From an uncultured Pseudomonadales bacterium (GTDB lineage: Bacteria; Patescibacteriota; Microgenomatia; UBA1400; UBA1396), in contig CAYUUK010000009.1 of the NCBI GenBank assembly GCA_964447905.1, forward strand, positions 1 to 41,712: a DNA stretch of 41,712 bases. Reading direction: 5' to 3'. Below the pieces are notes generated by a model. The model searched no databases. It was not told where the DNA came from and was given only the letters and a program-made list of their open reading frames with translations. Each line of letters opens with the position of its first letter. Positions within the stretch are counted from its first letter, which is position 1. A program made the translations under genes and the position numbers. Positions 2,603-39,520 of the stretch are shown here, piece by piece.

Positions 2603-4603
2603 ATGCGTTGCATGCACGCGGAAACGCTTATCATTGCCGTTCTCTTCAGTGGTCTCTTTTTGGCCATCACTGCTGTACTGCAAACTGTCGTACGCCGCAG
2701 TAATGTACCGTACACCGTTGCGCTGCTCGTCGTAGGTTTTATTGGGCAGTACGTCCTCAATTCTAGCGGCATTGAGAATCCCCTTTCACTCGAAACAGAC
2801 TTGATTTACTTTGTGCTGCTCCCACTCCTTCTCTATGAGTCGGCTTTTCACATTAATTTTCACCAGTTTCAACTCCAGTTCAAAACAATTACTTTCAATG
2901 CCACTTTTGGTGTTTTGCTTTCAACTGGAATCATAGCTGTACTTCTCAACCAATTCCTCGGAATGGAGTTACTCTACGGACTGCTCTTTGGCGCCCTTAT
3001 TTCTGCCACGGACCCTATCGCTGTGCTCGCCCTCTTTAAAGAACTGGGTGCCCCAAAGCGTCTTGGACTGCTTGCAGAAGGTGAAAGCATGTTCAACGAT
3101 GCCACTGCGGTTATCTTATTCCGCGTGATCAGCGGATTTGTAGTGGCCGATCAACTGTTTGCTACTGTTGACTTGGCATACAATGTACTCGACTTTACCT
3201 ATGTCTTCATTGGGAGCTTGCTCTTTGGATTTATAGCTGCCTTTGTTACTTCACTGTTCATCTCGAGCATTAAAAACGATCGCTTGGTAGAAACAACGCT
3301 GACCATTGCGCTCTCACTCATTACTTTTGTTGCTGCGGAGCATTTCTTCCATCTCTCTGGCGTCATTGCTACTGTGGCCGCTGGTCTCACCATGGGAAAT
3401 ATTGGTCGTACCAAGATATCCTCACCAGTTATCTCTTTCATGGAAGAACTATGGGAGTACATTGGTTTTATTGCTGTCTCACTGGTATTCTTCTTTGCTG
3501 GTCTGGACCTCGATATCGCCGGCATCATTGCGCAACCATACAATGTTCTCCTTGTGATTTTGGCGGTGCTCATCAGCCGCGCCATCTCCACCTATGCCAG
3601 TTACTTTTTCTCAAACACCCTCCCATTCTTCAAAAATGAACCAAATGTGTTTCTCAAGTGGCAACACGTTTTAAACTGGGGCGGTTTGCGTGGTGTCATT
3701 CCGCTGGTGTTGGTGTATTCATTGCCGTATGACTTCGTACTGCGCGACGAATTTATTGCCTACACTCTGGCCACGTTCTTGTTCACTATGCTGGTAAACG
3801 CCACAACTATTCGCAAACTGCTCATGAAACTTGGTTTACACCTGCCAAAACGAGAAGAAGAGATTATTAAAGAAGAAACGAGCATCTTTACTATCCAAGA
3901 AGCAAAAAAGCGACTAGAAGAGTTTTCCGAGCACGAGTTTTCTCGAGTGGTCATTAAAGATGTGCAACGAAACCTTTCAGAAAAGGAAAAGAAGCACCAA
4001 CGTCGCTTAGCAGAACTCGCCACTCCCCGCGAACTGGTGAAAAGTCTCCGACTGGAAGTAATTGAGATCGAGCGTCGCACGATTCAACGCCTTTATGACC
4101 AGGAGCACATTAGTGAAAATGTTCTCAACACATTTAAAACAGAACTTGACCTGCAACAAGATGCGCTCGAGTACCCAGAGCTTTATGCTGGTCGAGGGTA
4201 CCGGGCCGGTGGTCGAATAGATAGTCAAGAAAACTTCTTGTCTCGACTCGGTCGTATCAAAGACTGGATTCAACACTTCCCACTTCCCATTATTCAGAAT
4301 TGGTTGGTCCAGAATGAAACCCAGTTGGTGATGGGCCGCTTGTCGCTCCTACAAGCCCGTATTGTGGCCAGCAGCGAAGCCATTACCTACCTGGAGCACG
4401 TGGCTGGGTTACTGGACAACGACAAACAGGCTCTCCGAATTATCGACAATGTTCGCTGCGAACACGAACAGTTCCGCTTGAAGAACAACTTCCAGATGCA
4501 AATTATCGAACGCAATTACTCCCGTCTCTTCCAAGAGTTTGAACGCCATTTAGTGGAAACCCTGGCCTGGAAGAAAGACGGAACAGAAACAGCTACGCAC
4601 TAA
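2603..4603 (+). CDS. CPA1-family Na+/H+ antiporter with long cytoplasmic C-terminus (start may be 2612)
   Basis: Many TM helices; ISATDPIAV, GESMFNDA and WGGLRGVI motifs. Confidence 0.92.
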   Translation: MRCMHAETLIIAVLFSGLFLAITAVLQTVVRRSNVPYTVALLVVGFIGQYVLNSSGIENPLSLETDLIYFVLLPLLLYESAFHINFHQFQLQFKTITFNATFGVLLSTGIIAVLLNQFLGMELLYGLLFGALISATDPIAVLALFKELGAPKRLGLLAEGESMFNDATAVILFRVISGFVVADQLFATVDLAYNVLDFTYVFIGSLLFGFIAAFVTSLFISSIKNDRLVETTLTIALSLITFVAAEHFFHLSGVIATVAAGLTMGNIGRTKISSPVISFMEELWEYIGFIAVSLVFFFAGLDLDIAGIIAQPYNVLLVILAVLISRAISTYASYFFSNTLPFFKNEPNVFLKWQHVLNWGGLRGVIPLVLVYSLPYDFVLRDEFIAYTLATFLFTMLVNATTIRKLLMKLGLHLPKREEEIIKEETSIFTIQEAKKRLEEFSEHEFSRVVIKDVQRNLSEKEKKHQRRLAELATPRELVKSLRLEVIEIERRTIQRLYDQEHISENVLNTFKTELDLQQDALEYPELYAGRGYRAGGRIDSQENFLSRLGRIKDWIQHFPLPIIQNWLVQNETQLVMGRLSLLQARIVASSEAITYLEHVAGLLDNDKQALRIIDNVRCEHEQFRLKNNFQMQIIERNYSRLFQEFERHLVETLAWKKDGTETATH

Positions 4604-18290: not shown

Positions 18291-18935
18291 ATGAGAACAA
18301 TCATCGACACCACTCGCCAAATTGTATTGGCTGATGACGTAGCGCAACAAGCGCTTGCAGAAAATATACTTAACCTCAGTGCCTATGCTGAAAAAATTCA
18401 ACCAAAAATTGAAGCGATAACCTACAAAAGTGTTAAAAAAGGCAGTATTGTGGTCGCGCTTACGCGATTAGCAGAAGAAGTACGCCACCTCGAAAATCTT
18501 CGTCCAAACGTAATAATCGAAAGTCTGCATATACAATCAACGCTTTGTAGCATCACCTTTGAAAAAACAACGAGCACACGCCAACAACTCTCAACACTTC
18601 ATAACACACTGAAACTGAGTGAGAGCGCTTTCTTCACCTCAACACAGAGTACCAGCGAGATCACACTCATTGCACCTCAATCAGCACTACCAACAATACT
18701 AGAGCATTTCTCACCACCACCCAAGGCCCTTTACCAAAACCAGGTTGGCCTCTCGGTCACATTTGCGCAAAAATACCTTGAGATACCGAATGTGCTTTAT
18801 GCCCTGCAAGCTGCTCTTGCTGTACAGCGAGTAAATTTTACTGAAGTAGTATCGACATATACGGAGTTTTGCTTTGTGGTTGATGAAGGTTCACTGGATG
18901 TGGCAACACGAGTTCTTCGCCAATTTATGCAGTAG
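18291..18935 (+). CDS. ACT-like domain protein, possible amino-acid-sensing regulator
   Basis: Helical N-terminus (LNLSAYA...SIVVALTRL); ACT-like repeats (QSTSEITLI; VNFTEVVSTYTEFCFVV); no kinase motifs seen. Confidence 0.65.
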   Translation: MRTIIDTTRQIVLADDVAQQALAENILNLSAYAEKIQPKIEAITYKSVKKGSIVVALTRLAEEVRHLENLRPNVIIESLHIQSTLCSITFEKTTSTRQQLSTLHNTLKLSESAFFTSTQSTSEITLIAPQSALPTILEHFSPPPKALYQNQVGLSVTFAQKYLEIPNVLYALQAALAVQRVNFTEVVSTYTEFCFVVDEGSLDVATRVLRQFMQ

Positions 18936-19553
18936 CTTTTCCATATCTTCATCACTCGTGATGTGCAGCACCTGATACCCCAACTCCTGAGCTGGAACAA
19001 TGTCTGTCTCCAACTGATCTCCTACGGAAATCATCGTATTTGGTATTCTCTTATGCGCTAACTTCTCAAAAATCTCCCGTTTACTTCCAGTTGGGAATGA
19101 CTCTGCTGTAAACACCTGAGAAAAGTACGAATCAAGTTCCAAAAAAGTAAATACGACCCTTTGCCAAGCTTTTGGTGCGGAAGTGACCAGGACAAGTTCA
19201 CAGCCACTTTCATGAACTTGACTGACTATTTGAAGGGCTCTTTCATATTTTTGCACTATATTTGTGGGGTCAATATTCCAAACGCGCTCAAAATAATTGG
19301 CACGAGTGATGTTATAGCGATCTGCTAAGAACTGACTCGTAGTGCGATAGCCGTTTTTTTCTGACTTCGTAGCAAGCTGGAAAACTCGCTCAACCTCTTT
19401 TGCATCGCAAGATTCACTTTCTTGAATGAAGGCATACGCATTCTGTTTTACCTGTGCTTCCAGCGTCGAACCAACATAGCCATTTCTACTGCCATCGATT
19501 TGGTAGAGTGTGCCATCCATATCAAAAACGACCGTAGAAATATCACCGCTCAT
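18891..19553 (-). CDS. HAD-family hydrolase
   Basis: FDMDGTLY, VTSA, K and SVGDQLETD motifs I-IV. Confidence 0.9.
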   Translation of the reverse strand: MSGDISTVVFDMDGTLYQIDGSRNGYVGSTLEAQVKQNAYAFIQESESCDAKEVERVFQLATKSEKNGYRTTSQFLADRYNITRANYFERVWNIDPTNIVQKYERALQIVSQVHESGCELVLVTSAPKAWQRVVFTFLELDSYFSQVFTAESFPTGSKREIFEKLAHKRIPNTMISVGDQLETDIVPAQELGYQVLHITSDEDMEKLLHKLAKNSCCHIQ

Positions 19554-20470
19554 TCTTGCTCCTCTTGTGAATTCATCACTGAGAGAAAAAGCGTTTCTAA
19601 TTCTTTTGCTTGCACAGCAGTAAGTACAGTACAGTTTAGTTTTCCCTCTACCACCTTCGTTTCACCGTATCTTTCCTTATCGCTGTACTCAACAACAACG
19701 CGCGCTGCTTCACTCTTAAAAAGATCCGGCTCTACCTCTAGGGCAACAGCTAACAGGTCATACATAACACCGCCATTAAAACCACCATACTCTGCGTCCT
19801 TAGAGTAGTAGTCGACATACATTTTGGTAATCTTGGTGAAACCTTCCGCTAAAGTACTGTTCGTGACACTTTGGAAAAATGATTCATCAAAGGTAACTTT
19901 GCGACAAACATTGGCTGGAACAATCGTAATATTTTCGTGTCCAAGTGACAAAACGGTGTGAAGAGCAAACGGATCATTGTATATATTAAACTCCGCATAT
20001 GCAGATACATTCCCTTTTTCACCAAATACTCCACCCATAAGAATAATTTTTGCCGCTTTTTTCAGTAAATCTGGTCTAGAGAGGGCTACTTTTGCGAGGT
20101 TCGTTACCGGGCCAATAGCGATTATAGTTATTGGTTCATCATCAGCTTTTTGTAGCATTTCGATCAAAAACGACTCGGCTGACTGTCCTTCCGCCCGCAA
20201 TTGTGTCTCTAAAAAATACCCACCAAAACCACCTGTACCGTGAGAATGTGCTAAACGCTTTTCTCCTTGAAGAGGATCAGCAGCACCAGGAAACACGGGA
20301 ATAGATCGTTGCACAAGTTCTAACAACATTAATGCATTCCGTGTTGTGTCCTCCAGATGAGAATTTCCATAGACGGTACAAATTCCAGCAATATCCATAC
20401 CAGCCTTGCAGGCAAATGCCAAAGCAATGGCGTCATCTACTCCGGGGTCGGTATCGAGGATGTATTTCAT
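19550..20470 (-). CDS. Nucleoside hydrolase (IU-NH family)
   Basis: DTDPGVDDA, IGPVTN, MGG and AEFNIYNDP; 4-nt overlaps with both neighbours. Confidence 0.92.
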   Translation of the reverse strand: MKYILDTDPGVDDAIALAFACKAGMDIAGICTVYGNSHLEDTTRNALMLLELVQRSIPVFPGAADPLQGEKRLAHSHGTGGFGGYFLETQLRAEGQSAESFLIEMLQKADDEPITIIAIGPVTNLAKVALSRPDLLKKAAKIILMGGVFGEKGNVSAYAEFNIYNDPFALHTVLSLGHENITIVPANVCRKVTFDESFFQSVTNSTLAEGFTKITKMYVDYYSKDAEYGGFNGGVMYDLLAVALEVEPDLFKSEAARVVVEYSDKERYGETKVVEGKLNCTVLTAVQAKELETLFLSVMNSQEEQE

Positions 20471-21633
20471 AGTTCAGAGTCTTTCAGTATTTTTGTAAAG
20501 ACCTCTACTCCAGAATAAAAATCTTTTAAGCGTATACGCTCATCTGGCTGGTGATTTGAAGCACCAACACCACTTCCAAATGAGAAAGCGGCCGGTTTAT
20601 CAAAAGCTTCCCAGGCCATTTGTATATCAAGATACCCTGTGTCCTTAGGGCTAGATAGAGCACTAGAACCATTAATTTCTTGGATAATTTTTATGAAGGG
20701 GGCAATCTCCTGTGGGTCGGTGTACCAAGAGCCGAAGTCATGAGTGAAAGAAACAATTTCTAAATCTAGCTTTTGTTGCATCAAACTTCTTTGCAACACT
20801 GAAGTTACCGTTTCTGCTCTCAGTGTTGGAACTGAAGGCCGAATATCGATTGTACACTCACAGATGTCTGGCACCACGTTTCCTTGCCGACTCACTCTCT
20901 GAAGCTGGCCTTCAGCATATGAATCTGGCTTCTCAGCACCACCGAGAATATAAGCAACATTGAGTGGATAGTTCCCGAGTACGGGATGTGTGCTATCAGC
21001 GAGGTATGCTTCTAGCATTGCTAGTGCTTTCATCGCGCCCTTAATAGCACTCTTGCCACCGTTTCGAGCAGGGTGACCGGTTTCACCCTTCACCCGAAAC
21101 GTTATTTCAATCAGACCTCGGCACCCCACCCCCATCTTTAAATCAGATCCATCTGCTGAAATTAAAAAGCGAGGACGAATATCAGCATATTTCTTAATAA
21201 ACTCTTTCATACCAAGAAAATTGTATTCCTCATCTGCGTACAAAAGAATCCAAAAATTCTTCTCTTTGGCTTCAGGTGTGAGTAACATCATGAGCAGAGA
21301 TGCCAACCCAGACTTCATATCGGCCGCTCCTCTCCCCCAAATCTCACCGTTCACTTCGGTAGCTTCTAGTTGATTGTATGGAGAACTTTGAGATGGAGCG
21401 ACTGTATCGCTGTGACCTAAAAACAGTACTTCTGGCTCACCGGATTTAATAATCAGGTTATACCGCCCTCCTGGAATCAACTGTCTTTCAACCACAAACT
21501 CAGTATTCTCAAGAATCCATCTTTCCAGATACTCAACTAACGCATTTTCATTTTGTTCTGGAACGGACTCATCGAGATAGGACGGAATAGCAATAAGTTC
21601 TTTCAAAAGCTGCTTTGATTGTTCATTTTTCAT
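20467..21633 (-). CDS. M20 (ArgE/DapE-family) metallo-amidohydrolase
   Basis: GHSDTV, GRGAADMKSG, ADEE, GHPA and HQPDE; start ATG 21633 (MKNEQ). Confidence 0.9.
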   Translation of the reverse strand: MKNEQSKQLLKELIAIPSYLDESVPEQNENALVEYLERWILENTEFVVERQLIPGGRYNLIIKSGEPEVLFLGHSDTVAPSQSSPYNQLEATEVNGEIWGRGAADMKSGLASLLMMLLTPEAKEKNFWILLYADEEYNFLGMKEFIKKYADIRPRFLISADGSDLKMGVGCRGLIEITFRVKGETGHPARNGGKSAIKGAMKALAMLEAYLADSTHPVLGNYPLNVAYILGGAEKPDSYAEGQLQRVSRQGNVVPDICECTIDIRPSVPTLRAETVTSVLQRSLMQQKLDLEIVSFTHDFGSWYTDPQEIAPFIKIIQEINGSSALSSPKDTGYLDIQMAWEAFDKPAAFSFGSGVGASNHQPDERIRLKDFYSGVEVFTKILKDSEL

Positions 21634-21667
21634 ATTTCTCTTTCTAAACACTTCATTTTTGGGGTAC

Positions 21668-21743
21668 AAAAAAAACCCGCTTCGGGGTTGTGTGAAGTGT
21701 TTCTGTTTTTTGGTATTTTATGAGAAATGAATCACAACCCCGA
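21668..21743 (-). terminator. Attenuator: terminator with alternative antiterminator
   Basis: mRNA AACCCCG-AAG-CGGGUUUUUUUU terminator; its 5' arm (21682-21692) is an 11-bp perfect complement of 21733-21743 inside the leader ORF. Confidence 0.75.
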
Positions 21744-21795
21744 CGGTATGGAGTACATGATGAACTTGATGACGAAGTGTGATGCAATACAGCAT
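21718..21795 (-). CDS. His-rich leader peptide MLYCITLRHQVHHVLHTVGVVIHFS
   Basis: 25 codons including 5 His (all CAT); extended -10 TGATACAAT 7 nt before the ATG (leaderless); overlaps the antiterminator arm. Confidence 0.72.
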   Translation of the reverse strand: MLYCITLRHQVHHVLHTVGVVIHFS

Positions 21796-21891
21796 TGCAA
21801 GAATTGTATCATATAAAAAATATGATTTGCACACACGAGCATTAAAAACTACAATATACCCATAAATAAACACAATTTACGCAAGGTGCAC

Positions 21892-22150
21892 ATGTCCACA
21901 CTTTCAAAAAATGAAGCTCCCTCTCAACACTGTCGTTTTTTTAGGAGAGAGATCACGGTGCACATCATGCAGGGCCCTTCGACCAAATACTGCAGAAATG
22001 ATCATCCAAGAGAATGGCGAAATTTACCTTTACTGCATCGTAACGCGCAACCTGCGTGCCCAAATGATGTGTAGTTCCTATGAAAAAGTTCCGAAACCTC
22101 AACCTCAACAACTCAATCCGAGCACAACACCAGCGCCTCACAACAGGTGA
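21892..22150 (+). pseudogene. Small Cys-rich protein interrupted by a +1 insertion in a T7 run (paralog of 30429..30659)
   Basis: Frame A MSTLSKNEAPSQHCRF joins frame B LGERSRCTSCRALRPNTAEM...IYLYC...AQMMCSSY if T7 (21936-21942) is T6; TTGCAC-N17-TACAAT promoter upstream. Confidence 0.7.
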
Positions 22151-22728
22151 TCAATGCTGTTACTGCGCAGTAACTGAAACTCTATATCCACACTCACCTG
22201 CGTAATGGAGCACTCTTTAATTTCATAGTCCAGTTCATTCGGAAATTTTTTCAGCATGGGCTGGAGTTGCTCTTCGGTAAAAATATTCCGCAAAAAATCG
22301 CTAATAATTCCCCCGTGCGAGACCAGAAGAATGTGCTCCTCGGGAGCACTCACGTGCTCAGTAATAACGGCTAAAAAGCTGTTTCCTGCCTGGCGAGAGG
22401 ACTGCCCTCCCAGCGGAACAAAGTCGCGGTCTTTGCTCGTTTGAATCCAGGTTTGGATAAAGTCATCTCGGGTTTGTCCCGGACGATCACCCCAGTTAAT
22501 GCGCTCGCGCAGTCGCGAATCCGTGTGAATGGGAAGATTCAGCGCCTCAGCGATGTACCCAGCGGTTTCTTGTGTGCGCCGCAGCGGACTAGCGATGATT
22601 TTTTGAATCGGCTGACTCACTAAGTGCTGCGCCGTCCGGCGCGCCTGCTCATGCCCCAGCTCATTCAAGCCAGGATCCATGGGCGAAAAGTGCTTGTCGC
22701 CGTGGCGAATGAGCGTAAAGGTGGTCAT
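22138..22728 (-). CDS. Histidine phosphatase family protein
   Basis: LIRHG, ASPLRRTQETA, LRE and LVSHGG; start ATG 22728. Confidence 0.9.
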   Translation of the reverse strand: MTTFTLIRHGDKHFSPMDPGLNELGHEQARRTAQHLVSQPIQKIIASPLRRTQETAGYIAEALNLPIHTDSRLRERINWGDRPGQTRDDFIQTWIQTSKDRDFVPLGGQSSRQAGNSFLAVITEHVSAPEEHILLVSHGGIISDFLRNIFTEEQLQPMLKKFPNELDYEIKECSITQVSVDIEFQLLRSNSIDHLL

Positions 22729-22792
22729 GAATGCCTCTTTTCTTTGTGAATTGCCGAAAAAGTCTTTTTTTTGCGATACAATCAGTATACAT

Positions 22793-23461
22793 ATGAATAT
22801 TGAAATCATTCCAGGTATTCAAGGCGCCCAACAGGCTACAGATATCGCTGTGATTATCGACGTGCTCCGTGCTGCATCCGTAGCGGCGTATCTGCTTGAC
22901 GCCGGTGTCACTTCAATTGTACCGGTATCCACCGCAGAAGAAGCCTTCCAACAGAATAAAGATGAAAATACGCTGCTCGTCGGTGAAAACAAAGGCATTA
23001 TGATTCCTGGTTTTGACCTGCGAAACTCTCCCAGTGAAATTCAAAAGAGAAATGACTTAGCCAACAAAAAAGTCATTCATCGTAGTTCCACCGGGACACA
23101 AGGCCTCGTGCATGCCCGCCACGCATCAGAAATTATTTTTGGCAGTTTTGTGACCGCGGAACCGATCATCAAGTATTTACGAAATCTCTCCAACAGAACT
23201 ATTACCCTCGTTCCCATGGATGCGTATGACGATCATATGTTTGCCGAGTATCTCTTGGCGAAACTCACTGACGGCAACCCGCTCTCTGTATCGACCATCA
23301 AAGAAAAAATTTCCGCACACGAGTGGATCCAGACACATTTCCTTAATCCAAAAAACCACCAATTCCCAGAAGAAGACTTCCACCTCTGTATTCGCGAAAG
23401 TGTTTTTGGCTTCTATCCGGTGGTACAAAATGGAAAAATTGTGAAAAGTACTCAGTTATGA
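22793..23461 (+). CDS. 2-phosphosulfolactate phosphatase (ComB) family protein
   Basis: VIIDVLRAAS, LLVGE, GFDLRNSPSE and SSTGTQG; start ATG 22793. Confidence 0.85.
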   Translation: MNIEIIPGIQGAQQATDIAVIIDVLRAASVAAYLLDAGVTSIVPVSTAEEAFQQNKDENTLLVGENKGIMIPGFDLRNSPSEIQKRNDLANKKVIHRSSTGTQGLVHARHASEIIFGSFVTAEPIIKYLRNLSNRTITLVPMDAYDDHMFAEYLLAKLTDGNPLSVSTIKEKISAHEWIQTHFLNPKNHQFPEEDFHLCIRESVFGFYPVVQNGKIVKSTQL

Positions 23462-24228: not shown

Positions 24229-24294
24229 ATGCACACAAACAACAGCTGCTACCTAATCTGGTTTATGGCCGCCCGCGGAGGTGCTTGTTTGTAG
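24229..24294 (+). CDS. Leader peptide MHTNNSCYLIWFMAARGGACL
   Basis: 21 codons; extended -10 TGCTATACT 8 nt before the ATG; contains the antiterminator arm GGAGGTG. Confidence 0.62.
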   Translation: MHTNNSCYLIWFMAARGGACL

Positions 24295-24349
24295 TGCAAT
24301 TGCAGTAAAAAGAAACAAGAATTCACCTCCCAACCGGGAGGTTTTTTTT
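24277..24349 (+). terminator. Attenuator: terminator with alternative antiterminator
   Basis: Terminator ACCTCCC-AACC-GGGAGGT-T7 (24325-24349); alternative pairings GGAGGTG (24277-83)/CACCTCC (24324-30) and CTTGTTT/AAACAAG. Confidence 0.75.
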
Positions 24350-24362
24350 GGAGAAAGGAAGT

Positions 24363-25481
24363 ATGTTACACAAAAAAGATTTTCTCGATCAGCTAGCACA
24401 ACTTGTTGCTATTCCCACAATTACAGCGGATATTGATGCAAATCAAAAGGCGATTGAGTACATTACTTCGCTGATATCGCCAAGTGCACACATTGAAGTA
24501 CACGAAAACAACCAGACAAAAATTCTTATTGCTAGCAATACAACATCTCTGAACCCGAAAATCGGCTATCTAGTACACGTCGATGTGGTTGCCGCATCGG
24601 AAGCCATGTTCACCATGCAGCAAAAAGAGAACAGAGTCTTTGGCCGTGGCGTGAGCGATATGAAGTTCTCTATTCCGTTGGGTATCGCACTGCTCAATGA
24701 ACTGATCGACACAAAAAGTACTCTTCCATTCTCGCTGGCCATCACCACTGACGAAGAGGTTGGCGGATTAAATGGTGCGGCCCACTTAGCCCACCACATT
24801 GGCTGGAGGCCTGATGTCCTCATTGTTCCAGATGGCGGCGATAACGCGCAGTTTGTTCATGCATCAAAGGGTGTCGCCCAATTTGAGGTGGTAGCAACTG
24901 GCATATCTGCGCATGCTTCGCGGCTCTGGGAGGGGAAAAATGCCATTACACCACTGGCGCATATAGTCACTGAACTCGAAAAACGATACAAAAGGAATAA
25001 TGCTACCGAAGGATGGAAAACAACAGTAAACTTTGGAAAAATTTCTGGTGGCATCTCCACCAACCAAGTCTGTGACCAAGCCACGCTGCAACTTGATTTT
25101 CGCTACCCCGAAACTGACAACTTCGAACGCATCGTTGCTGAACTCCAAGAAATCGCTGCACCGTTCAAAGATCAGGTGGGCATTTCGCCTTTGGCAACTG
25201 GCCTCCCTACGGCTACGAGTATCGAGTTACCAGTAGTGAAAAAGTTTTTACGGATACTAGAAGAAACCTACTCACAAAAAGTTGCCAGTAAACCCACGCA
25301 CGGCGGCTCGGACGCTCGGCATTTCGCCGCCTACGGCACGCCTATTCTGATGATCAAACCGCATGGCGGAGATATTCATATGGAAAGTGAGTGGCTGGAT
25401 GTTGACTCAACCATGCTCTTTTACCAGGCTTTGAGAAATTTTTTACGAGAAATGGAACATGAGGACAATAATGTTTCCTAG
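24363..25481 (+). CDS. M20-family amidohydrolase (desuccinylase/deacylase-like)
   Basis: HVDVV, GRGVSDMK, TDEEVGG, SAHAS, GGSDAR and IHMESE; start ATG 24363 with AAAGGAAG SD. Confidence 0.9.
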   Translation: MLHKKDFLDQLAQLVAIPTITADIDANQKAIEYITSLISPSAHIEVHENNQTKILIASNTTSLNPKIGYLVHVDVVAASEAMFTMQQKENRVFGRGVSDMKFSIPLGIALLNELIDTKSTLPFSLAITTDEEVGGLNGAAHLAHHIGWRPDVLIVPDGGDNAQFVHASKGVAQFEVVATGISAHASRLWEGKNAITPLAHIVTELEKRYKRNNATEGWKTTVNFGKISGGISTNQVCDQATLQLDFRYPETDNFERIVAELQEIAAPFKDQVGISPLATGLPTATSIELPVVKKFLRILEETYSQKVASKPTHGGSDARHFAAYGTPILMIKPHGGDIHMESEWLDVDSTMLFYQALRNFLREMEHEDNNVS

Positions 25482-26589
25482 AATTCACAAAGCGGAACTG
25501 ATTGAAGTTGCCCTGCCGCTCATTACTCCATACACAACAGGCTTTGGCACACTTTTTGATCGCCACACTCTTCTTGTACGGCTGGAAACAGAAGATGGAG
25601 TAATTGGCTGGGGAGAAGCGGCACAACTGCAAGACCCTATCTATCTCGAAGAATGGCTTAATGGAAGCTGGCACTTTATTGTAGAGTATTTGCTCCCACT
25701 CGTTACTGGTTCTGGAATCACTGCAAAACAATTTGCTCATGAGGTAAAAAAGTATCGAAGACACAATATTTCCAAGTTTGCTGTGGAGACTGCTTTATGG
25801 ATGATAGAAGCCAAAAGAGCTGGCACTTCGTATGCCACCTTAGTCGGAGGCGTGCGCAAAACAATAGAATCTGGAGCAAGTGTTGGCATCCAAGAAAGTA
25901 GAGAAAAAACTATTCTCTCTGTACGAAATAAGCTCGATGCTGGTTATAAACGTATCAAGCTTAAAATCAGACCTGGGTGGGATTATGAAATAGTGAAAGC
26001 TATCCAAAACAAATTCCCAGATTGTCAATTAATGGTTGATGCCAACTCTTCGTATACGCTCGACGACATCGAGCAGCTAAAAAAACTCGATAAATTTGAT
26101 TTACTCATGATCGAACAACCGCTTGCCTATGACGACATTGTCGACCATGCTGAACTGGCAAAGCATATAAAAACTCCAATTTGTCTTGATGAAAGCATCT
26201 GCTCAGCAGCCGATGCCAGAAAGGCGATTCAGCTCGGTGCCTGCCAAATCATTAATGTCAAACCAGCTCGCGTGGGAAGTCTCTATGCAGTTCAAGAAAT
26301 GAATCAGTTGGCTCATGAAAAGAATATACAACTCTGGTGTGGAGGTATGTTAGAGGGCGATATTGGAAAAATTGCTAATTTAGCCGCAGCTAGCTTATCT
26401 GAATTTTCGCTCCCTGCAGATATTTCCAATTGGAAAACGTATTTTTCGAGTACTTTCACTGATATCGACAAAATGTACTCCCCACCAACTTTTACCTTGT
26501 CAGATACTTTCGGAAGTGATGTATCTGTCGACGAATCATGGATCAAACGATACACAGTTCGAAAGAAACGCTACGTCTCCAATTTCTGA
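25459..26589 (+). CDS. o-succinylbenzoate synthase / N-acylamino acid racemase (enolase superfamily)
   Basis: KRIKLKI, MVDANSSY, MIEQPL, ICLDESI, NVKPARVG and WCGGMLE, typical of the NSAR/OSBS subfamily. Confidence 0.88.
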   Translation: MRTIMFPRIHKAELIEVALPLITPYTTGFGTLFDRHTLLVRLETEDGVIGWGEAAQLQDPIYLEEWLNGSWHFIVEYLLPLVTGSGITAKQFAHEVKKYRRHNISKFAVETALWMIEAKRAGTSYATLVGGVRKTIESGASVGIQESREKTILSVRNKLDAGYKRIKLKIRPGWDYEIVKAIQNKFPDCQLMVDANSSYTLDDIEQLKKLDKFDLLMIEQPLAYDDIVDHAELAKHIKTPICLDESICSAADARKAIQLGACQIINVKPARVGSLYAVQEMNQLAHEKNIQLWCGGMLEGDIGKIANLAAASLSEFSLPADISNWKTYFSSTFTDIDKMYSPPTFTLSDTFGSDVSVDESWIKRYTVRKKRYVSNF

Positions 26590-33889: not shown

Positions 33890-35134
33890 TTAGCGCATTT
33901 CTGATGTTGCACAATGGGCACCACCATAAAACTTTGTTAATTCATTCATTCTCAAGAGGACAGCGTTCACAGCGTGCTCACGAATAAACCGCGTAACATT
34001 CGGTGTCCCGTCTCTAGTAACAAAAACCGTAGTATCTCCAGTCTGGCTACCATGTACTAGCACATTTGGAGCGTAATCTAACTGTTCTTGTCTGGTCATA
34101 TCATACACGTGATCCGCGTTTTGCTCAATCCATTCGGCAAAAGTCCCTTCACGCATATTTTCAGGTTTCACTTTCACAATTCGCCCCATTTTTCTCATAA
34201 GGATAGATACATCACGATGGCGTGTTATTTCACCACAATGAACAATTGCTCCAGGAGCAATTTGTTGAGCAAAAGTGTCGATATGCATCTGATCTTGTGT
34301 CCCAGATTTAGGTCCTTCCACTACTACAGGAATAATCCCATCTCCACTGGCACTGAATAGTTTCTCGTGCATTGCGAACCACGCTTTTACTGCACTATAT
34401 GAAGTACGCTCTGCAGTTCCAATAACTGAAAAAAGCTGTCCGTTCAGTTCCATTGGTAAAATGTCACCACCTTCTATTGATCCACGATTCAACCCAGTAA
34501 CAACTGGTTTATATTCGAGACCAAGTGCATCAAAGCCGATTTGCGCAAGCGCCACTTCTTGGTCACGAATTGAGTAGAACATCCTATGTGTTCCCATTTG
34601 ATTTCCAGTTACGTGATTTGTGTCTCTCCAAAAAAGAAAATTACCAGCTGGAGGAAGATTTGGATTGAATGGTTTAATACTTCCTTTTCGATCAAGCACG
34701 TTTGTGAGAACACCATTAATTGCTATTGCCGGATCAAGTCCCATTGATTGCACATCTTTATCAAAAAGTTGAACAACTTCATCCACTAAGTGATCGAAGT
34801 CATCAACGAGTCCGTATCTTTGTTGAAGTAACTCTGCTCGACGAATAAGCTCGTTTAAAAATTGTTCTCTCGATGTAATAGCCAAATCGTAGCGCTGTGC
34901 CAATTCAGTACCAATAATCTCTCTCATGTTAAAGGACTGAATACCATGCTGTTCGAAGGTTTCTCTCATTCGGTCATGATCTCGTCGTGCTTCAACAACA
35001 CTCGCATCAGCAGAATTAGGTTCAAATAAGGATTTTTCGGGAGGAAGTGTTAAACAAACTGCTGCTTCTGTACCTGGAGGACCCGAAAGAACTGATTTAA
35101 TTGGGTCTAAAGGTGAGTAATTCTCGGCTCGCAT
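33890..35134 (-). CDS. Arginine deiminase-like (amidinotransferase superfamily) protein
   Basis: NFLFWRD, SIEGGD, MHIDT and GGAHCAT catalytic Asp/Glu/His/Cys motifs. Confidence 0.82.
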   Translation of the reverse strand: MRAENYSPLDPIKSVLSGPPGTEAAVCLTLPPEKSLFEPNSADASVVEARRDHDRMRETFEQHGIQSFNMREIIGTELAQRYDLAITSREQFLNELIRRAELLQQRYGLVDDFDHLVDEVVQLFDKDVQSMGLDPAIAINGVLTNVLDRKGSIKPFNPNLPPAGNFLFWRDTNHVTGNQMGTHRMFYSIRDQEVALAQIGFDALGLEYKPVVTGLNRGSIEGGDILPMELNGQLFSVIGTAERTSYSAVKAWFAMHEKLFSASGDGIIPVVVEGPKSGTQDQMHIDTFAQQIAPGAIVHCGEITRHRDVSILMRKMGRIVKVKPENMREGTFAEWIEQNADHVYDMTRQEQLDYAPNVLVHGSQTGDTTVFVTRDGTPNVTRFIREHAVNAVLLRMNELTKFYGGAHCATSEMR

Positions 35135-35261
35135 GTTTGTTTCCTATCTAGGCAAGCAGTTAATATTTCTCCGAAAATACCACAAAATACATCAATTGTA
35201 AACATCTATTGATGTTAGAAACGCAAAGCTAATTAATTAGATAGATATCAATCGTATATAA

Positions 35262-36536
35262 CTATATACTCTCCCTAAAATGATTTTTTACTTTCGAAGA
35301 CGTCTTCATCGCTAATGAATACAACTCAATAAATCCAGCACTCGAGTTTTGATTAAACTTGCCATTTTTGTTGAATGTGGCTAAGTCAGCATCGAATAGT
35401 GAATGTGGTGAAGTGACGCTAACAACATCAGCTCGACCTTTATACAATTTGAGTTTTACGATCCCACTCACTTTTTGATTCATAGAATCAATATAAGCAT
35501 TCAGATGTCGCATGCTTGGCTCTTGCCATTTCGCACTGTAGCAAAGGTATGCCCATTTTGAATCAACAAACTCCTTAAGCTCGTTTTCGGTCTGAGTGCT
35601 GACGAGTTTTTCCAAATTGTAGTGTGCCAGAGTAATTGCATGTGCCGCTGGGGCTTCGTAGACTCCTCTAACTTTCAAACCAACCAAACGGTCCTCAATC
35701 AAGATGGTGTAACCAACTCCATGTTTGCCAACAATACTATTCGCTTCGTGAATCAGTTCAACTAGAGACATCTGCTTGCCATTCAAAGCAACAGGCAAAC
35801 CTTTCAAAAACTCAATCTCCAAGTATTCTGGCTTGTCTGGAGCTTGTTCTGGCAAAGTAGTAACTTGTAGAATTTGTTCTAGCTTGGGTTCTTGTTTAGG
35901 ATCTTCAATCTCTCCACCTTCTCCAGTCACCCCCCACATATTGTCATCCCAGGAGTAGGGAACATTTTTTTTGGCTTGCTTGGTTTCGATACCATGCTTG
36001 GCGGCGTACTTGAGCTGTTCATCTCTGCCCATGCTCCATTCACGCACTGGTGCAATCGCTTTCATGTAAGGATCTTCACAAAGAATTGAGCTTTCAATAC
36101 GTACTTGATCATTGCCCTTGCCAGTAGCTCCATGGGCGATAACCGTTGCTCCCTCTGCATGAGCGATTTCTACCGCTTTTTTAGCGAGCAGTGGACGTCC
36201 AATCGGAGTGCTCAGATGGTACTCACCCTGGTAACTCCCATTCGCCTTGATTGCTTGAGCGATATACTTATTGGCAAACTCTTCTTTGCAATCTAGGACA
36301 ATTGCCTTCTTTGCTCCAAGCTTGATCGCTTTTTGCTTAATTGCTTCGAGATCATCAGCTTGTTGACCAATATCTATCGTTAAAGCGATAACTTCAGCTC
36401 CGTAAGAATCCTGAATCCACTTGAGCATGACCGAAGTATCAAGTCCGCCTGAGTAGAGTAGAACTACTTTGTTTATTTGATCGCCTTCGTGAACTTCATG
36501 AGAGGCTATCTTTTTGTAATTTGTTTGTGTTTGCAT
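35262..36536 (-). CDS. argG: Argininosuccinate synthase
   Basis: LLYSGGLDTS, HGATGKGNDQVR and EDRLVGLKVRGVYEAP; start ATG 36536 with AAGGA SD. Confidence 0.96.
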   Translation of the reverse strand: MQTQTNYKKIASHEVHEGDQINKVVLLYSGGLDTSVMLKWIQDSYGAEVIALTIDIGQQADDLEAIKQKAIKLGAKKAIVLDCKEEFANKYIAQAIKANGSYQGEYHLSTPIGRPLLAKKAVEIAHAEGATVIAHGATGKGNDQVRIESSILCEDPYMKAIAPVREWSMGRDEQLKYAAKHGIETKQAKKNVPYSWDDNMWGVTGEGGEIEDPKQEPKLEQILQVTTLPEQAPDKPEYLEIEFLKGLPVALNGKQMSLVELIHEANSIVGKHGVGYTILIEDRLVGLKVRGVYEAPAAHAITLAHYNLEKLVSTQTENELKEFVDSKWAYLCYSAKWQEPSMRHLNAYIDSMNQKVSGIVKLKLYKGRADVVSVTSPHSLFDADLATFNKNGKFNQNSSAGFIELYSLAMKTSSKVKNHFRESI

Positions 36537-36543
36537 GTTTTCC

Positions 36544-37908
36544 TTATTTGAGTAAATCTTGTAATTTTTGTTGAAAGTGTTTGTTTTGTTTTTTCCAGTA
36601 TGTACGCTCAAGGCGAGACCTTTTTTGTGTAATTCCTAGTTGTAAGTTGCCAGTGGATCCCTGTGAGATTGCTTTCATTAACAACTCTGCTATGTCGAAA
36701 TCTGGAATCTCATGTAGATGATCCTTAACGTATCGATACGCTTCTCGAAACGGCATGTCTTTTTCTTCTACTAACACATATGCCCAATGAGCAGCAAAAA
36801 GTTCTTTAGGAATATGGTGTTCTACTTTTTCTTGATTGATTGTGAGCGTCTCTACATGCAGTTGGGCTACTTGAAGTGATTCAAGCGTTGTTTGAAAAGC
36901 TGAGATAAGACTTCCCTTGGCTTGTTGCAAATCTCTGTTATATCCAGAGGGGATGCTCGCCAAACTGGTGCTTAATTGAAGTTGAGTGGAGACTATTTGA
37001 TGATACTTTGATCGCATTAACTCTAAAGCGTCCCAGTTTTGTTTCTGAGGCATGATACTACTGCCCGTACCAAGTTCTTTGGCAAAAGAAATGTAGCCAA
37101 ATGGTTCAGTTGTAAAAATAAGACAGTCAGTCGCAAATTTATTAAGCGTTGCCATGATCTGGCACAGTGCATGGATAGTTACCGCTTCAATTTTCCCTCG
37201 TGAGTTTTGACAATACAGGGCATTGTTTTGAACTTTCTCAAAGCCAAGTAAATGAGCTGTGAATTCTCGGTCAAGTGGTAGAGTTACACCATACGCCGCT
37301 CCAGAACCAAGCGGCGACTGATTATTGAGTTGATAGGCAGTTTTTAATACTTCTAGATCGTCGAGCAAGCTTTCTGCATAGGCTCCAAGCCACAACCCAA
37401 ATGATGACAACATAGCAGGTTGCATGTGGGTCATGCCAGCTAGGGGAACATTTTGGTAGTTTTCAGCTTGTTTGAGAAAACTTTCAATAAGTGCAATAGA
37501 GCTCTCAGCAATTTTTGAAATTTGTGTTTTTGAGTAGAGTCGAATATCAACAAGTACTTGATCATTTCTTGATCGTCCGGTGTGCAGTTTTCCACCCGAT
37601 TCTGGATGCAAATTCGTGAGTTCGGTTTCAACCTTGGTGTGAATATCTTCATCACCCAGTGAGAGATTCATTTCTCCACTGGAAAACTGTTTTAAGATTG
37701 CTTTCAATCCAGCATGTATCTGTTTAAAGTCTTTCTCTTCAATCAGGTTCTGCTTCTGAAGCATCTTGGCATGTGCCAGAGATCCGTAGATATCAAACTC
37801 GGCTAGATGGGTATCCAACAAAACGTCCTCTCCAGAAGTGTACTTTTCTATCAAAGCGTTAATTGTATGAGTGGTTTGCCACAGTTTTTTTGTCATAGTT
37901 TTTTTCAT
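36544..37908 (-). CDS. argH: Argininosuccinate lyase (start may be 37896)
   Basis: EDIH, LHTGRSRNDQ, THMQPA, SPLGSGA, GSSIMPQK and SGYNRDLQ. Confidence 0.95.
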   Translation of the reverse strand: MKKTMTKKLWQTTHTINALIEKYTSGEDVLLDTHLAEFDIYGSLAHAKMLQKQNLIEEKDFKQIHAGLKAILKQFSSGEMNLSLGDEDIHTKVETELTNLHPESGGKLHTGRSRNDQVLVDIRLYSKTQISKIAESSIALIESFLKQAENYQNVPLAGMTHMQPAMLSSFGLWLGAYAESLLDDLEVLKTAYQLNNQSPLGSGAAYGVTLPLDREFTAHLLGFEKVQNNALYCQNSRGKIEAVTIHALCQIMATLNKFATDCLIFTTEPFGYISFAKELGTGSSIMPQKQNWDALELMRSKYHQIVSTQLQLSTSLASIPSGYNRDLQQAKGSLISAFQTTLESLQVAQLHVETLTINQEKVEHHIPKELFAAHWAYVLVEEKDMPFREAYRYVKDHLHEIPDFDIAELLMKAISQGSTGNLQLGITQKRSRLERTYWKKQNKHFQQKLQDLLK

Positions 37909-37920
37909 TTATTTTTTCTT

Positions 37921-37997
37921 TGGTGAGCCCGGCAGGATTCGAACCTGCGACCTTCAGTTCCGCAAACTGACGCTCTATCCAACTGAGCTACGAGCGC
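37921..37997 (-). tRNA. tRNA-Arg(GCG)
   Basis: TCAGT-TT-GCG-GA-ACTGA anticodon arm; A73 and CCA encoded; C2-U71 mismatch. Confidence 0.93.
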
Positions 37998-37998
37998 A

Positions 37999-38076
37999 TG
38001 GTGCCCTAGGAGGGATTCGAACCCCCGCAAAACCCGGTTCCGAAGACCGGTGCTCTATCCACTGAGCTACTAAGGC
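37999..38076 (-). tRNA. tRNA-Arg(UCG)
   Basis: CCGGT-CT-TCG-GA-ACCGG; GCCTTAG/CTAGGGC acceptor stem; ACCA end. Confidence 0.93.
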
Positions 38077-38085
38077 ATTCTCACG

Positions 38086-38158
38086 TGCGTTTGGTGGGAC
38101 TCGAACCCACAACCTACTGCTTAGAAGGCAGTTGCTCTATCCCTTGAGCTACAAACGC
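38086..38158 (-). tRNA. tRNA-Arg(UCU), CCA not encoded
   Basis: ACTGC-CT-TCT-AA-GCAGT; GCGTTTG/CAAACGC acceptor stem; A73. Confidence 0.95.
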
Positions 38159-38390
38159 AAAAACGCCCCTTCACCTACCTCTTATCAGTAGACAAAGGGG
38201 CGTTTTCTGTAAACGCGGTACCACCCTTATTCTCTAAGTAATTACTCACTTAGACTTTACACCTGCTCTGTTACTCGATTTGAGTGACACAGATTTGAGT
38301 TATAACGGACTCGAATCGATCTCGATTTTGCGAGACTCCGCACTAGATTATATCTAGATTCATTGAGCGCGACTTCAATTCAAACGGATT
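38159..38390 (-). ncRNA. T-box riboswitch 2 (transcriptional; probable Arg CGC specifier)
   Basis: AAGGGTGGTACCGCG at 38228-38214; terminator AAACGCCCCTTTGTCTAC...GTAGGTGAAGGGGCGTTTTT; CCGTTA box; hairpin ATTGA-AGTCGCGC-TCAAT. Confidence 0.9.
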
Positions 38391-38413
38391 TATTTGTTTT
38401 TAACAACAAAGAA

Positions 38414-38441
38414 ATTATAACAAACATCTTATTGCGTTCAA
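38414..38441 (-). promoter_or_regulatory. Promoter for T-box 2
   Basis: TTGAAC-N16-TATAAT with extended -10 TG. Confidence 0.7.
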
Positions 38442-39520
38442 GATTTAAATTGAGATTTAGAAATTAACATATCTAAAATAATCATCTGTAATTTTTGTAG
38501 ATCATCAACTGATATTCGTTCATTAGTTGTATGAGGATCAATAACCCCGTCACTCACTGTTACAACTTCTAATCCTAGTTCAGCAAATGAGTTTGCGTCA
38601 CTTATTCCAAACACTTTTTTCTTTTTTAGAGGTAAATTATACTTATTAAGAATTTTTTCTATAAAATGAACCTGTTGTGAGTTATCTTTATGTGTATATC
38701 CACTACAATAACCACTAGTGCTAAATTTGAATATCGCATTTCCAAATTGTTTTTGGGTTTGATTTAGTCTTAACTCCAGCTTTTCAAGCATGTTCTTGAA
38801 TTTTGTTGCCGAAAAACTACGAATTTCTCCTTCTACAACAACCTTCTCAGGAATAGCATTTATTGCTGATCCTCCGCATATTTTTCCAATATTGAGAAAA
38901 ACATCTTTCTCGTCATTTGCACCCAGTCTCAAAGTCTCAATGTACTTGGTGGCGAATCGTAAAGCATTCACACCTTTTTCGGGAAAACAAGCATGTGCCC
39001 CTCTCCCGATAAATTCTATGTAAAAATTCACTATAAATGGGGCTGAAGTCACGATAGTTCCTAGTGGTTCAGCATAATCAAAAATATAGCCTTGCTTATT
39101 TTCAATAAGTTTGGTGTCAAAAAATTCAGCACCACCACCGGTTTCTTCTTTCACTGTAAATACGAGTTCAATTCCATTAATTGGCTTTATCAACATCCAT
39201 TCATCAACTGCTGTAAGAATCGCAGCCATGGATGCTTTGTTATCTGCTCCTAAAATAGTATTGCCTTGGCTTTGAATTACTCCATCTTGAATAATTGGAT
39301 GAATAGACCTTCCTGGTTCGACAGTGTCCATATGGGCACATAAAAAGAAGGGGATGAGAGTATCTCCCTCTTTTTTTAAAACAAGATTACCGACACTATC
39401 AGTGAAGTGAGACAGATTTCTTGATTTTCCCCATTGAATAAGCCATTTTCTAACATTTTCCTCACTACCTGATGGACTATCGATTTTTACTAACTCAAAA
39501 AATGTATCAATTAATGTCAT
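38438..39520 (-). CDS. M20B peptidase T-like metallohydrolase
   Basis: IDSPSGSE, AHMDTVEPG, LGADNKA, KEETG, AHA..PEKGVNA and HTTNE. Confidence 0.9.
   Translation of the reverse strand: MTLIDTFFELVKIDSPSGSEENVRKWLIQWGKSRNLSHFTDSVGNLVLKKEGDTLIPFFLCAHMDTVEPGRSIHPIIQDGVIQSQGNTILGADNKASMAAILTAVDEWMLIKPINGIELVFTVKEETGGGAEFFDTKLIENKQGYIFDYAEPLGTIVTSAPFIVNFYIEFIGRGAHACFPEKGVNALRFATKYIETLRLGANDEKDVFLNIGKICGGSAINAIPEKVVVEGEIRSFSATKFKNMLEKLELRLNQTQKQFGNAIFKFSTSGYCSGYTHKDNSQQVHFIEKILNKYNLPLKKKKVFGISDANSFAELGLEVVTVSDGVIDPHTTNERISVDDLQKLQMIILDMLISKSQFKS

Follow-up and report, generated by a model that had tools for sequence, protein, structure and literature searches.

The stretch of DNA considered here, hereafter the window, comprises 41,712 nucleotides (nt) and is contig 9 of a 1.06 Mb genome (47.7% GC, 95.6% complete). 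Coordinates are positions in this window unless another contig or locus is named; G000 denotes the window's own genome, other G numbers denote related genomes and L numbers denote individual loci. On the minus strand of the window lies a short open reading frame (ORF) with clustered histidine codons, followed by three overlapping genes, and it is this apparent leader, the RNA elements around it and the genes behind it that we discuss here. The first structural gene, M20a, encodes an ArgE/DapE-type M20 metallohydrolase (20467-21633; Pfam PF01546 and PF07687). It is followed by an inosine-uridine type nucleoside hydrolase (19550-20470; PF01156, E 1.3e-72), whose start overlaps the M20a stop by 4 nt, and by a HAD-IA family hydrolase (18891-19553; identified by a profile match), whose start in turn overlaps the nucleoside hydrolase stop. 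The initial annotation of this DNA had named an M20-nucleoside hydrolase-HAD operon downstream of the leader, and the Pfam families bear out these gene identities. In NCBIfam, M20a has subfamily-level matches only, all below cut-off; its nearest solved relatives are the ArgE and DapE deacylases, and its metal and catalytic residues (H74, D76, D105, E135, E136 and H361) are invariant in six orthologs.

The leader ORF (21718-21795, minus strand) begins with an ATG at 21795, ends with a stop codon at 21720-21718 and has 25 sense codons, with His at codons 9, 12, 13, 16 and 23, just as the initial annotation had read it. An extended -10 promoter element of the form TGnTAnnnT (21803-21811, minus strand) ends 7 nt before the leader ATG, which predicts that the transcript starts at or next to the ATG, i.e., that the mRNA is leaderless. 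The ORF had previously been called leaderless, and the promoter layout fits this description; it recurs in 11 of the 15 homologous elements compared below, where 5-8 nt separate the extended -10 element from the ATG, and we infer the transcription start from it. Two alternative frames, a 36-codon ORF (21842-21732) and a 51-codon GTG extension from 21873, were set aside because their starts lie upstream of the conserved -10 box. Across the host's order, an extended -10 box 5-8 nt before an ATG is so frequent that leaderless mRNAs seem to be common there. The pattern of a -10 element, an ATG and two His codons is matched in 234 of 286 genomes, mostly at ordinary leaderless genes, and it outnumbers its own reversed control in most of the genomes listed.

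Within and behind the ORF are the elements expected of a transcription attenuator (all on the minus strand). Segment 2, the putative 5' strand of an antiterminator, occupies codons 18-21 (21733-21742) and was recognized by its complementarity and by duplex energy relative to shuffles: ORF nt 54-63 (21742-21733) are complementary over 10 Watson-Crick pairs to segment 3 (21683-21692, read 21692-21683), which overlaps the 5' arm of the terminator. The 2:3 duplex has an energy of -16.7 kcal/mol (z -6.5), with none of 300 shuffles as good. An arm of 11 bp in these codons, able to sequester the terminator 5' arm, had been proposed initially; both the arm and its pairing are present, and only the length requires correction, to the 10 Watson-Crick pairs counted. 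The predicted intrinsic terminator (21668-21689) consists of a 5-bp hairpin (21689-21674) running into a U8 tract (21675-21668) and is positioned 35 nt before the M20 gene start (21633). The U8 terminator of the initial annotation is thus present with its hairpin and its eight U residues, though the hairpin is weak (-4.9 kcal/mol). When the ORF is folded alone, its nt 35-40 pair with nt 60-65 and its nt 42-46 with nt 55-59 (21761-21750 with 21741-21731). The upstream strand of this fold, segment 1 (21750-21761), is a putative anti-antiterminator that would pair with segment 2 when free of the ribosome; it spans His12/13 to the first base of His16 and had not been remarked before. None of these elements belongs to a catalogued RNA family as far as region 21000-22600 was searched: all 4227 Rfam families at E up to 10 gave only 8 chance-level matches and no leader family, and neither the Rfam His_leader covariance model nor the T-box covariance model matched.

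Homologs of the leader were sought by DNA and by protein. The leader DNA, compared with 41 related genomes, found only itself and one chance match of 57 nt, it found no match in E. coli genomes, and an M20 protein search of genome and metagenome contig collections returned no close relative. A search with an alignment of six M20a sequences recovered the contig of G165, a single additional ortholog (L044) and some 78 distant paralogs of M20, the last of which were left unused. Homologs were traced by protein because the nucleotide searches failed. M20a orthologs with 44-50% identity occur in G001, G006, G061, G088 and G165; those of G006 and G061 lie inside a longer operon or at a contig end. 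In G001 and G165 the nucleoside hydrolase and HAD genes are also linked to M20a, in shuffled order, so that the operon's first gene differs between genomes, and in G001, G165 and G088 the leader device sits before whichever gene opens the operon. Leaders were also found upstream of more distant M20 genes in G002, G003, G006, G258, G260, G264, G266, G267 and G271. The comparison set thus comprises 15 elements from four families of the order, two in the window and 13 in 12 other genomes (G001, G165, G088 with two in tandem, G002, G003, G006, G258, G260, G264, G266, G267 and G271).

All 15 elements share the same architecture, with a short ORF, a terminator hairpin of -4.9 to -13.7 kcal/mol and a U-run 41-49 nt past the stop codon, and every one has an arm inside the ORF that is complementary to the 5' arm of its own terminator. 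From lineage to lineage the sequence of this arm changes while the complementarity is kept: cognate arm duplexes have a mean energy of -15.4 kcal/mol, compared with -10.7 kcal/mol (standard deviation 2.9, n = 166) for cross-lineage pairings. A MAFFT alignment of the leaders does not keep the helices in register. At the peptide level, conservation is confined to the His codons and to those codons in which the RNA arm is encoded. The initial annotation had suggested looking for the His codons and the RNA pairing upstream of M20 orthologs, and His clusters, terminator and covarying arms do recur in the 12 genomes. A failure of the His codons to be conserved in homologs would have spoken against a histidine sensor; the outcome was in its favour, and His clusters also recur upstream of hisS.

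Because the first collection of homologs had been selected for His, we ran a residue-blind scan, the only fair test of His specificity, which required three features, namely a hexamer resembling a -10 box, an ORF of 10-30 codons and, 38-58 nt beyond its stop codon, a run of U. At M20-centred loci the scan gave 23 candidates, of which 10 had His as the residue that clusters; at hisS-centred loci this held for 9 of 15. The G000 genome as a whole yielded 43 candidates, and a His cluster is present in just two of them, the window leader and a leader of hisS; ten residue-blind candidates in G000 were inspected as possible leaders for other amino acids, and none was convincing. The hisS leader of G000 (contig 22, 8288-8335) has 15 codons with HHH at 10-12, a terminator and the same -10 nonamer as the window leader, and it precedes the only HisRS gene of the genome. 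The link between leader and hisS is also seen in relatives. For example, the gene order is leader, hisS, leader, GNAT-like gene and M20a in G088 and leader, small ORF, M20 and hisS in G266 (hisS identified by Pfam in both cases), and hisS lies in leader operons of G258, G264, G267 and G271 (identified by clustering). A convincing leader was found at 10 of the 30 closest hisS loci. The search with the two-His pattern over the 286 genomes is noisy: of the 30 loci it returned, three have convincing leaders (G011, G012 and G025) and one a doubtful leader, and two of the three convincing leaders also precede hisS.

The host is a candidate-phyla-radiation bacterium, since all of the relatives in its order have genomes of about 0.5-1.6 Mb and G165 is a public metagenome-assembled genome labelled Candidatus Paceibacterota. 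Its stop-codon usage is ordinary. An archaeal reading of the promoter region (TATA box and leaderless mRNA) was considered and rejected, as TBP was not found and sigma-70 is present in the host genome. The HisG, HisD, HisA/F and IGPD families were not found in the 95.6%-complete G000, and the same families gave matches in 14 of 14 control genomes. The host therefore appears to be unable to make histidine, as judged from its gene content, and the earlier suggestion of a likely auxotroph is supported by the lack of matches to these four his-pathway families in a near-complete genome.

The behaviour of the leader RNA was modelled by masking 28 nt around the ribosomal A site at each codon and comparing the best fold containing the terminator with the best fold lacking it. 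In the window, the largest shift toward readthrough (+6.6 to +7.1 kcal/mol) is obtained for stalls at V11-V14, which include His12/13, and at His16 the profile drops to -4.5 kcal/mol, after which it remains negative for the rest of the ORF. A modelled stall at His12/13 thus gives the largest shift toward the antiterminator, in agreement with the classical geometry proposed initially, in which stalling at these codons allows readthrough; the segment 1 that such a geometry includes is present as well. His12 and His13 (21757-21762, minus strand) are the likely regulatory codons on the basis of this energy peak and of the HH or HHH found at the matching place in homologs. Profiles also peak on His codons in G003, in G266 and in the hisS leader of G000, and weakly in G001. 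In minimum free energy folds, the terminator of 9 of the 15 elements is predicted to form both in free RNA and with a ribosome on the stop codon, and to be lost once the ribosome occupies the first His of the cluster.

Taken together, we consider it probable that the element is a leaderless, ribosome-mediated (leader-peptide) transcription attenuator that senses charged tRNA-His. Transcription would start at or next to the leader ATG from the extended -10 promoter, and as RNA polymerase advances, a ribosome would translate the 25-codon ORF. With ample His-tRNA, this ribosome would pass His12/13, and segment 2 would be either covered by the ribosome or re-paired with segment 1; with segment 2 unavailable, the hairpin and U8 would form and transcription would stop 35 nt short of the M20 gene. 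A shortage of His-tRNA would make the ribosome stall at His12/13 (and at His9) and cover segment 1, leaving segment 2 free to pair with the terminator 5' arm, so that polymerase could read through into the genes for M20, the nucleoside hydrolase and HAD. Acting on hisS as well, here and in relatives, the device would create a joint His-starvation regulon, and we would expect such a response in vivo.

It should be noted that several observations weigh against this interpretation. The window's terminator alone is not above chance for the host genome, in which hairpin-plus-T6 sites of -4 kcal/mol or better number 786, of which 627 lie inside coding sequence. Hence, since the hairpin reaches only -4.9 kcal/mol and such sites are common, the window by itself would not prove an attenuator. 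Strong hairpin-plus-T sites (-12 kcal/mol or better) are distributed differently, with 46 of 101 in the approximately 10% of the genome that is non-coding, and on this count canonical hairpin-plus-U terminators are used in the host. The window's terminator is also the weakest of the 15 (the other 14 range from -7.8 to -13.7 kcal/mol), its antiterminated fold is favoured even in free RNA (+4.0 kcal/mol), a ribosome at the stop codon leaves its two folds nearly equal in energy (+0.2), and modelled stalls at His16 and His23 favour termination and not readthrough. As for the comparative evidence, the search of same-genus DNA gave no nucleotide-level match to the leader, M20a-like matches occur in 21 genomes and in 11 of these no leader was found near the M20 gene, and the presence of a His cluster in 14 of the 15 elements holds by construction, because the first homolog collection required at least three His.

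The alternative that best survives is that the window copy is a decayed or constitutively open member of the family, with the operon expressed whatever the histidine supply. The energies just given for the terminator, for the free RNA and for the ribosome at the stop codon, where the antiterminator is not disfavoured, all point in this direction, as does a neighbouring paralogous leader (24229-24349) that has lost its His cluster. However, the U8 tract belongs to the longest U-run class of the set, the 1:2 pairing is intact, between His13 and His16 the energy profile still changes by about 11 kcal/mol, and weak hairpins with long U-tracts can terminate in a kinetics-dependent manner, so that we regard decay as unlikely. 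A milder possibility is that the window copy may be leaky, since its terminator is the weakest and its antiterminator is favoured in free RNA, or that it may rely on kinetics that lie outside the model.

Alternatively, the main target of regulation could be how well the mRNA of the first gene is translated or how stable it is, with control exerted by an outer helix that encloses the terminator and with termination playing a secondary part. The 5' strand of this helix, X (21693-21702, minus strand), pairs with its 3' strand, Y (21646-21655, minus strand), over 10 bp (21702-21693 with 21655-21646; -12.4 kcal/mol), and none of 200 shuffles was as good. An equivalent of X:Y with a different sequence occurs in G003 and G165, Y ends beside a purine-rich stretch (21645-21638) before the M20 start codon, and the leaderless polycysteine short ORFs of mycobacteria offer a precedent (10.1101/834739). 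Against this, no equivalent was found in the other 12 elements, so that X:Y is present in 3 of 15 while terminator and antiterminator are present in 15 of 15, and Y covers neither the purine-rich stretch nor the start codon; we find this mode of control very unlikely as the principal one. A near-copy of the helix X strand is also found in leader codons 6-8. Least credible of all is that the short ORF and the weak hairpin are neighbours by chance, or that the ORF is a separate small-protein gene that has a terminator to itself and senses nothing. The abundance of weak hairpin-plus-T sites, mostly in coding sequence, and the lack of an Rfam match would leave room for this reading, but it does not account for an architecture conserved across families with covarying arms and hisS linkage, nor for peptides whose only conserved positions are His codons and arm-encoding codons.

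Variants of the attenuator are found in the window and in related genomes. On the plus strand, the paralogous leader and terminator (24229-24349) have the same build as the window leader and no His cluster, and they precede a second M20 gene (24363-25481, plus strand), behind which lies an OSBS/NSAR-type gene of the enolase superfamily (25459-26589, plus strand). Orthologs of this leader in G002 and G006 carry HHH at codons 7-9. In the host and in the same-genus G001, the place is taken by Cys-Tyr with no His cluster, and the two leaders are conserved with each other, which could reflect a change in the amino acid sensed or a loss of sensing. The pairing of M20 and NSAR recalls the N-succinyl-amino-acid racemase route from D- to L-amino acids. 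At locus L040 of G088 (oriented positions 1938-2000 and 3293-3349), two His leaders stand in tandem, the first before hisS; the ATG of the second, which precedes the GNAT-like gene and M20a, overlaps the hisS stop codon, and this second leader hence looks translationally coupled, not leaderless. In G006, locus L039 contains a T-box-like element (3337-3521, minus strand; 45 bits compared with a gathering cut-off of 93, E 3e-7) whose stem I is very short and whose 7-nt loop has CAC at its centre. It precedes genes for an M15 protein, an unknown protein, a GNAT, another unknown protein, M20a and a second M20, where relatives use a His leader, and its features suggest that it may be a reduced, His-specific T-box.

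Farther out, a spacer of about 325 nt (21812-22137) separates the leader promoter from a histidine-phosphatase-superfamily gene (22138-22809), and no recognizable gene remnant, RNA family or terminator was found in it. The idea that the approximately 500-nt spacer is a pseudogene remnant was rejected, as tblastn with the genes that precede M20a in five relatives gave no match in 21634-22137. Elsewhere in the window (33890-39520), three tRNA-Arg genes (37921-38158) and a further M20 gene, the third (38438-39520), neighbour the genes for arginine deiminase, argininosuccinate synthase and argininosuccinate lyase; arginine metabolism is unusually rich for so small a genome.

Leader-peptide attenuation is textbook knowledge for amino-acid biosynthetic operons in Proteobacteria. 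In the enterobacterial hisL leader, a short ORF with clustered His codons is combined with 1:2, 2:3 and 3:4 pairings and an intrinsic terminator, and the operon is induced by a shortage of His-tRNA. The elements described here share with hisL the clustered His codons, the alternative pairings and the intrinsic terminator, and their logic is classical. They differ in having no Rfam match, in having 2-4 adjacent His codons where hisL has 7, in an ORF that is apparently leaderless, and in the genes regulated, which are hisS and hydrolases in a genome in which his biosynthesis genes were not found, whereas hisL controls the his biosynthetic operon.

Other bacteria provide further parallels. In bacilli, according to Naville and Gautheret (2010, PMC2965389), His leader peptides are predicted before a hisS paralog and hisZ, and switching between T-box and leader peptide is described at hisS. 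These cases resemble the present one in the His-codon short ORF with a premature terminator before HisRS-family genes, and in the use of differing sensors at syntenic genes, here the T-box-like element of G006 where relatives have leaders. The present elements differ in belonging to the candidate phyla radiation, in their leaderless ORFs and in a regulon that reaches M20 hydrolase operons. The leaderless polycysteine short ORFs of mycobacteria are described as acting on translation (Canestrari et al., 10.1101/834739); the likeness lies in a leaderless sensory first cistron and in several loci that answer to one amino-acid signal (a "ribulon"), and the difference is that every element here has a hairpin, a U-run and a competing arm, which indicates transcription termination in our case. 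Classical attenuators upstream of trpS and leuS in Streptomyces are described by Seliverstov et al. (2005, PMC1262725), who report no conserved RNA structure for the histidine operons of Actinobacteria; the attenuation of aminoacyl-tRNA synthetase genes by leader peptides is the feature in common, and the amino acid and the phylum are different. In the literature searched, no paper was found that joins Patescibacteria with leader-peptide attenuation or with a T-box riboswitch, and none of the 10 best-ranked of 225 papers on leader peptides and attenuators mentions the candidate phyla radiation. What is new here is the phylum, the combination of an apparently leaderless ORF with an intrinsic terminator, and a regulon in which hisS and hydrolases take the place of biosynthetic genes.

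In the clusters under His control, M20 recurs together with the nucleoside hydrolase, HAD, GNAT acyltransferases and a VanX-type M15 dipeptidase. A histidine-releasing role is the simplest reading of the operon because it would be co-induced with hisS in a histidine auxotroph; that these hydrolases supply histidine through salvage is a tentative proposal to which we give somewhat less than an even chance. More broadly, and also tentatively, the small-genome candidate-phyla-radiation bacteria of this order might run a histidine "ribulon", in which leaderless His ORFs co-induce hisS together with a hydrolase module that frees histidine from conjugates. Such a module may consist of M20 enzymes that act as deacylases or peptidases, in many cases accompanied by a GNAT, an M15 dipeptidase, a nucleoside hydrolase and a HAD phosphatase, and the conjugates may be host- or community-derived N-acyl-His, D-His or His-containing peptides. 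In a less likely version, the module would dismantle aminoacyl-nucleoside inhibitors of HisRS.

The attenuator gives a testable handle on gene regulation, about which very little is known in these organisms. The leaders would mark poorly annotated genes (M20, M15, GNAT, nucleoside hydrolase and HAD) as responsive to His starvation and suggest a scavenging route that can be assayed. If the ribulon proposal is true, these unannotated enzymes would receive their first functional label from the leaders, which would also open up the study of how an amino acid is detected and acquired in such auxotrophs.

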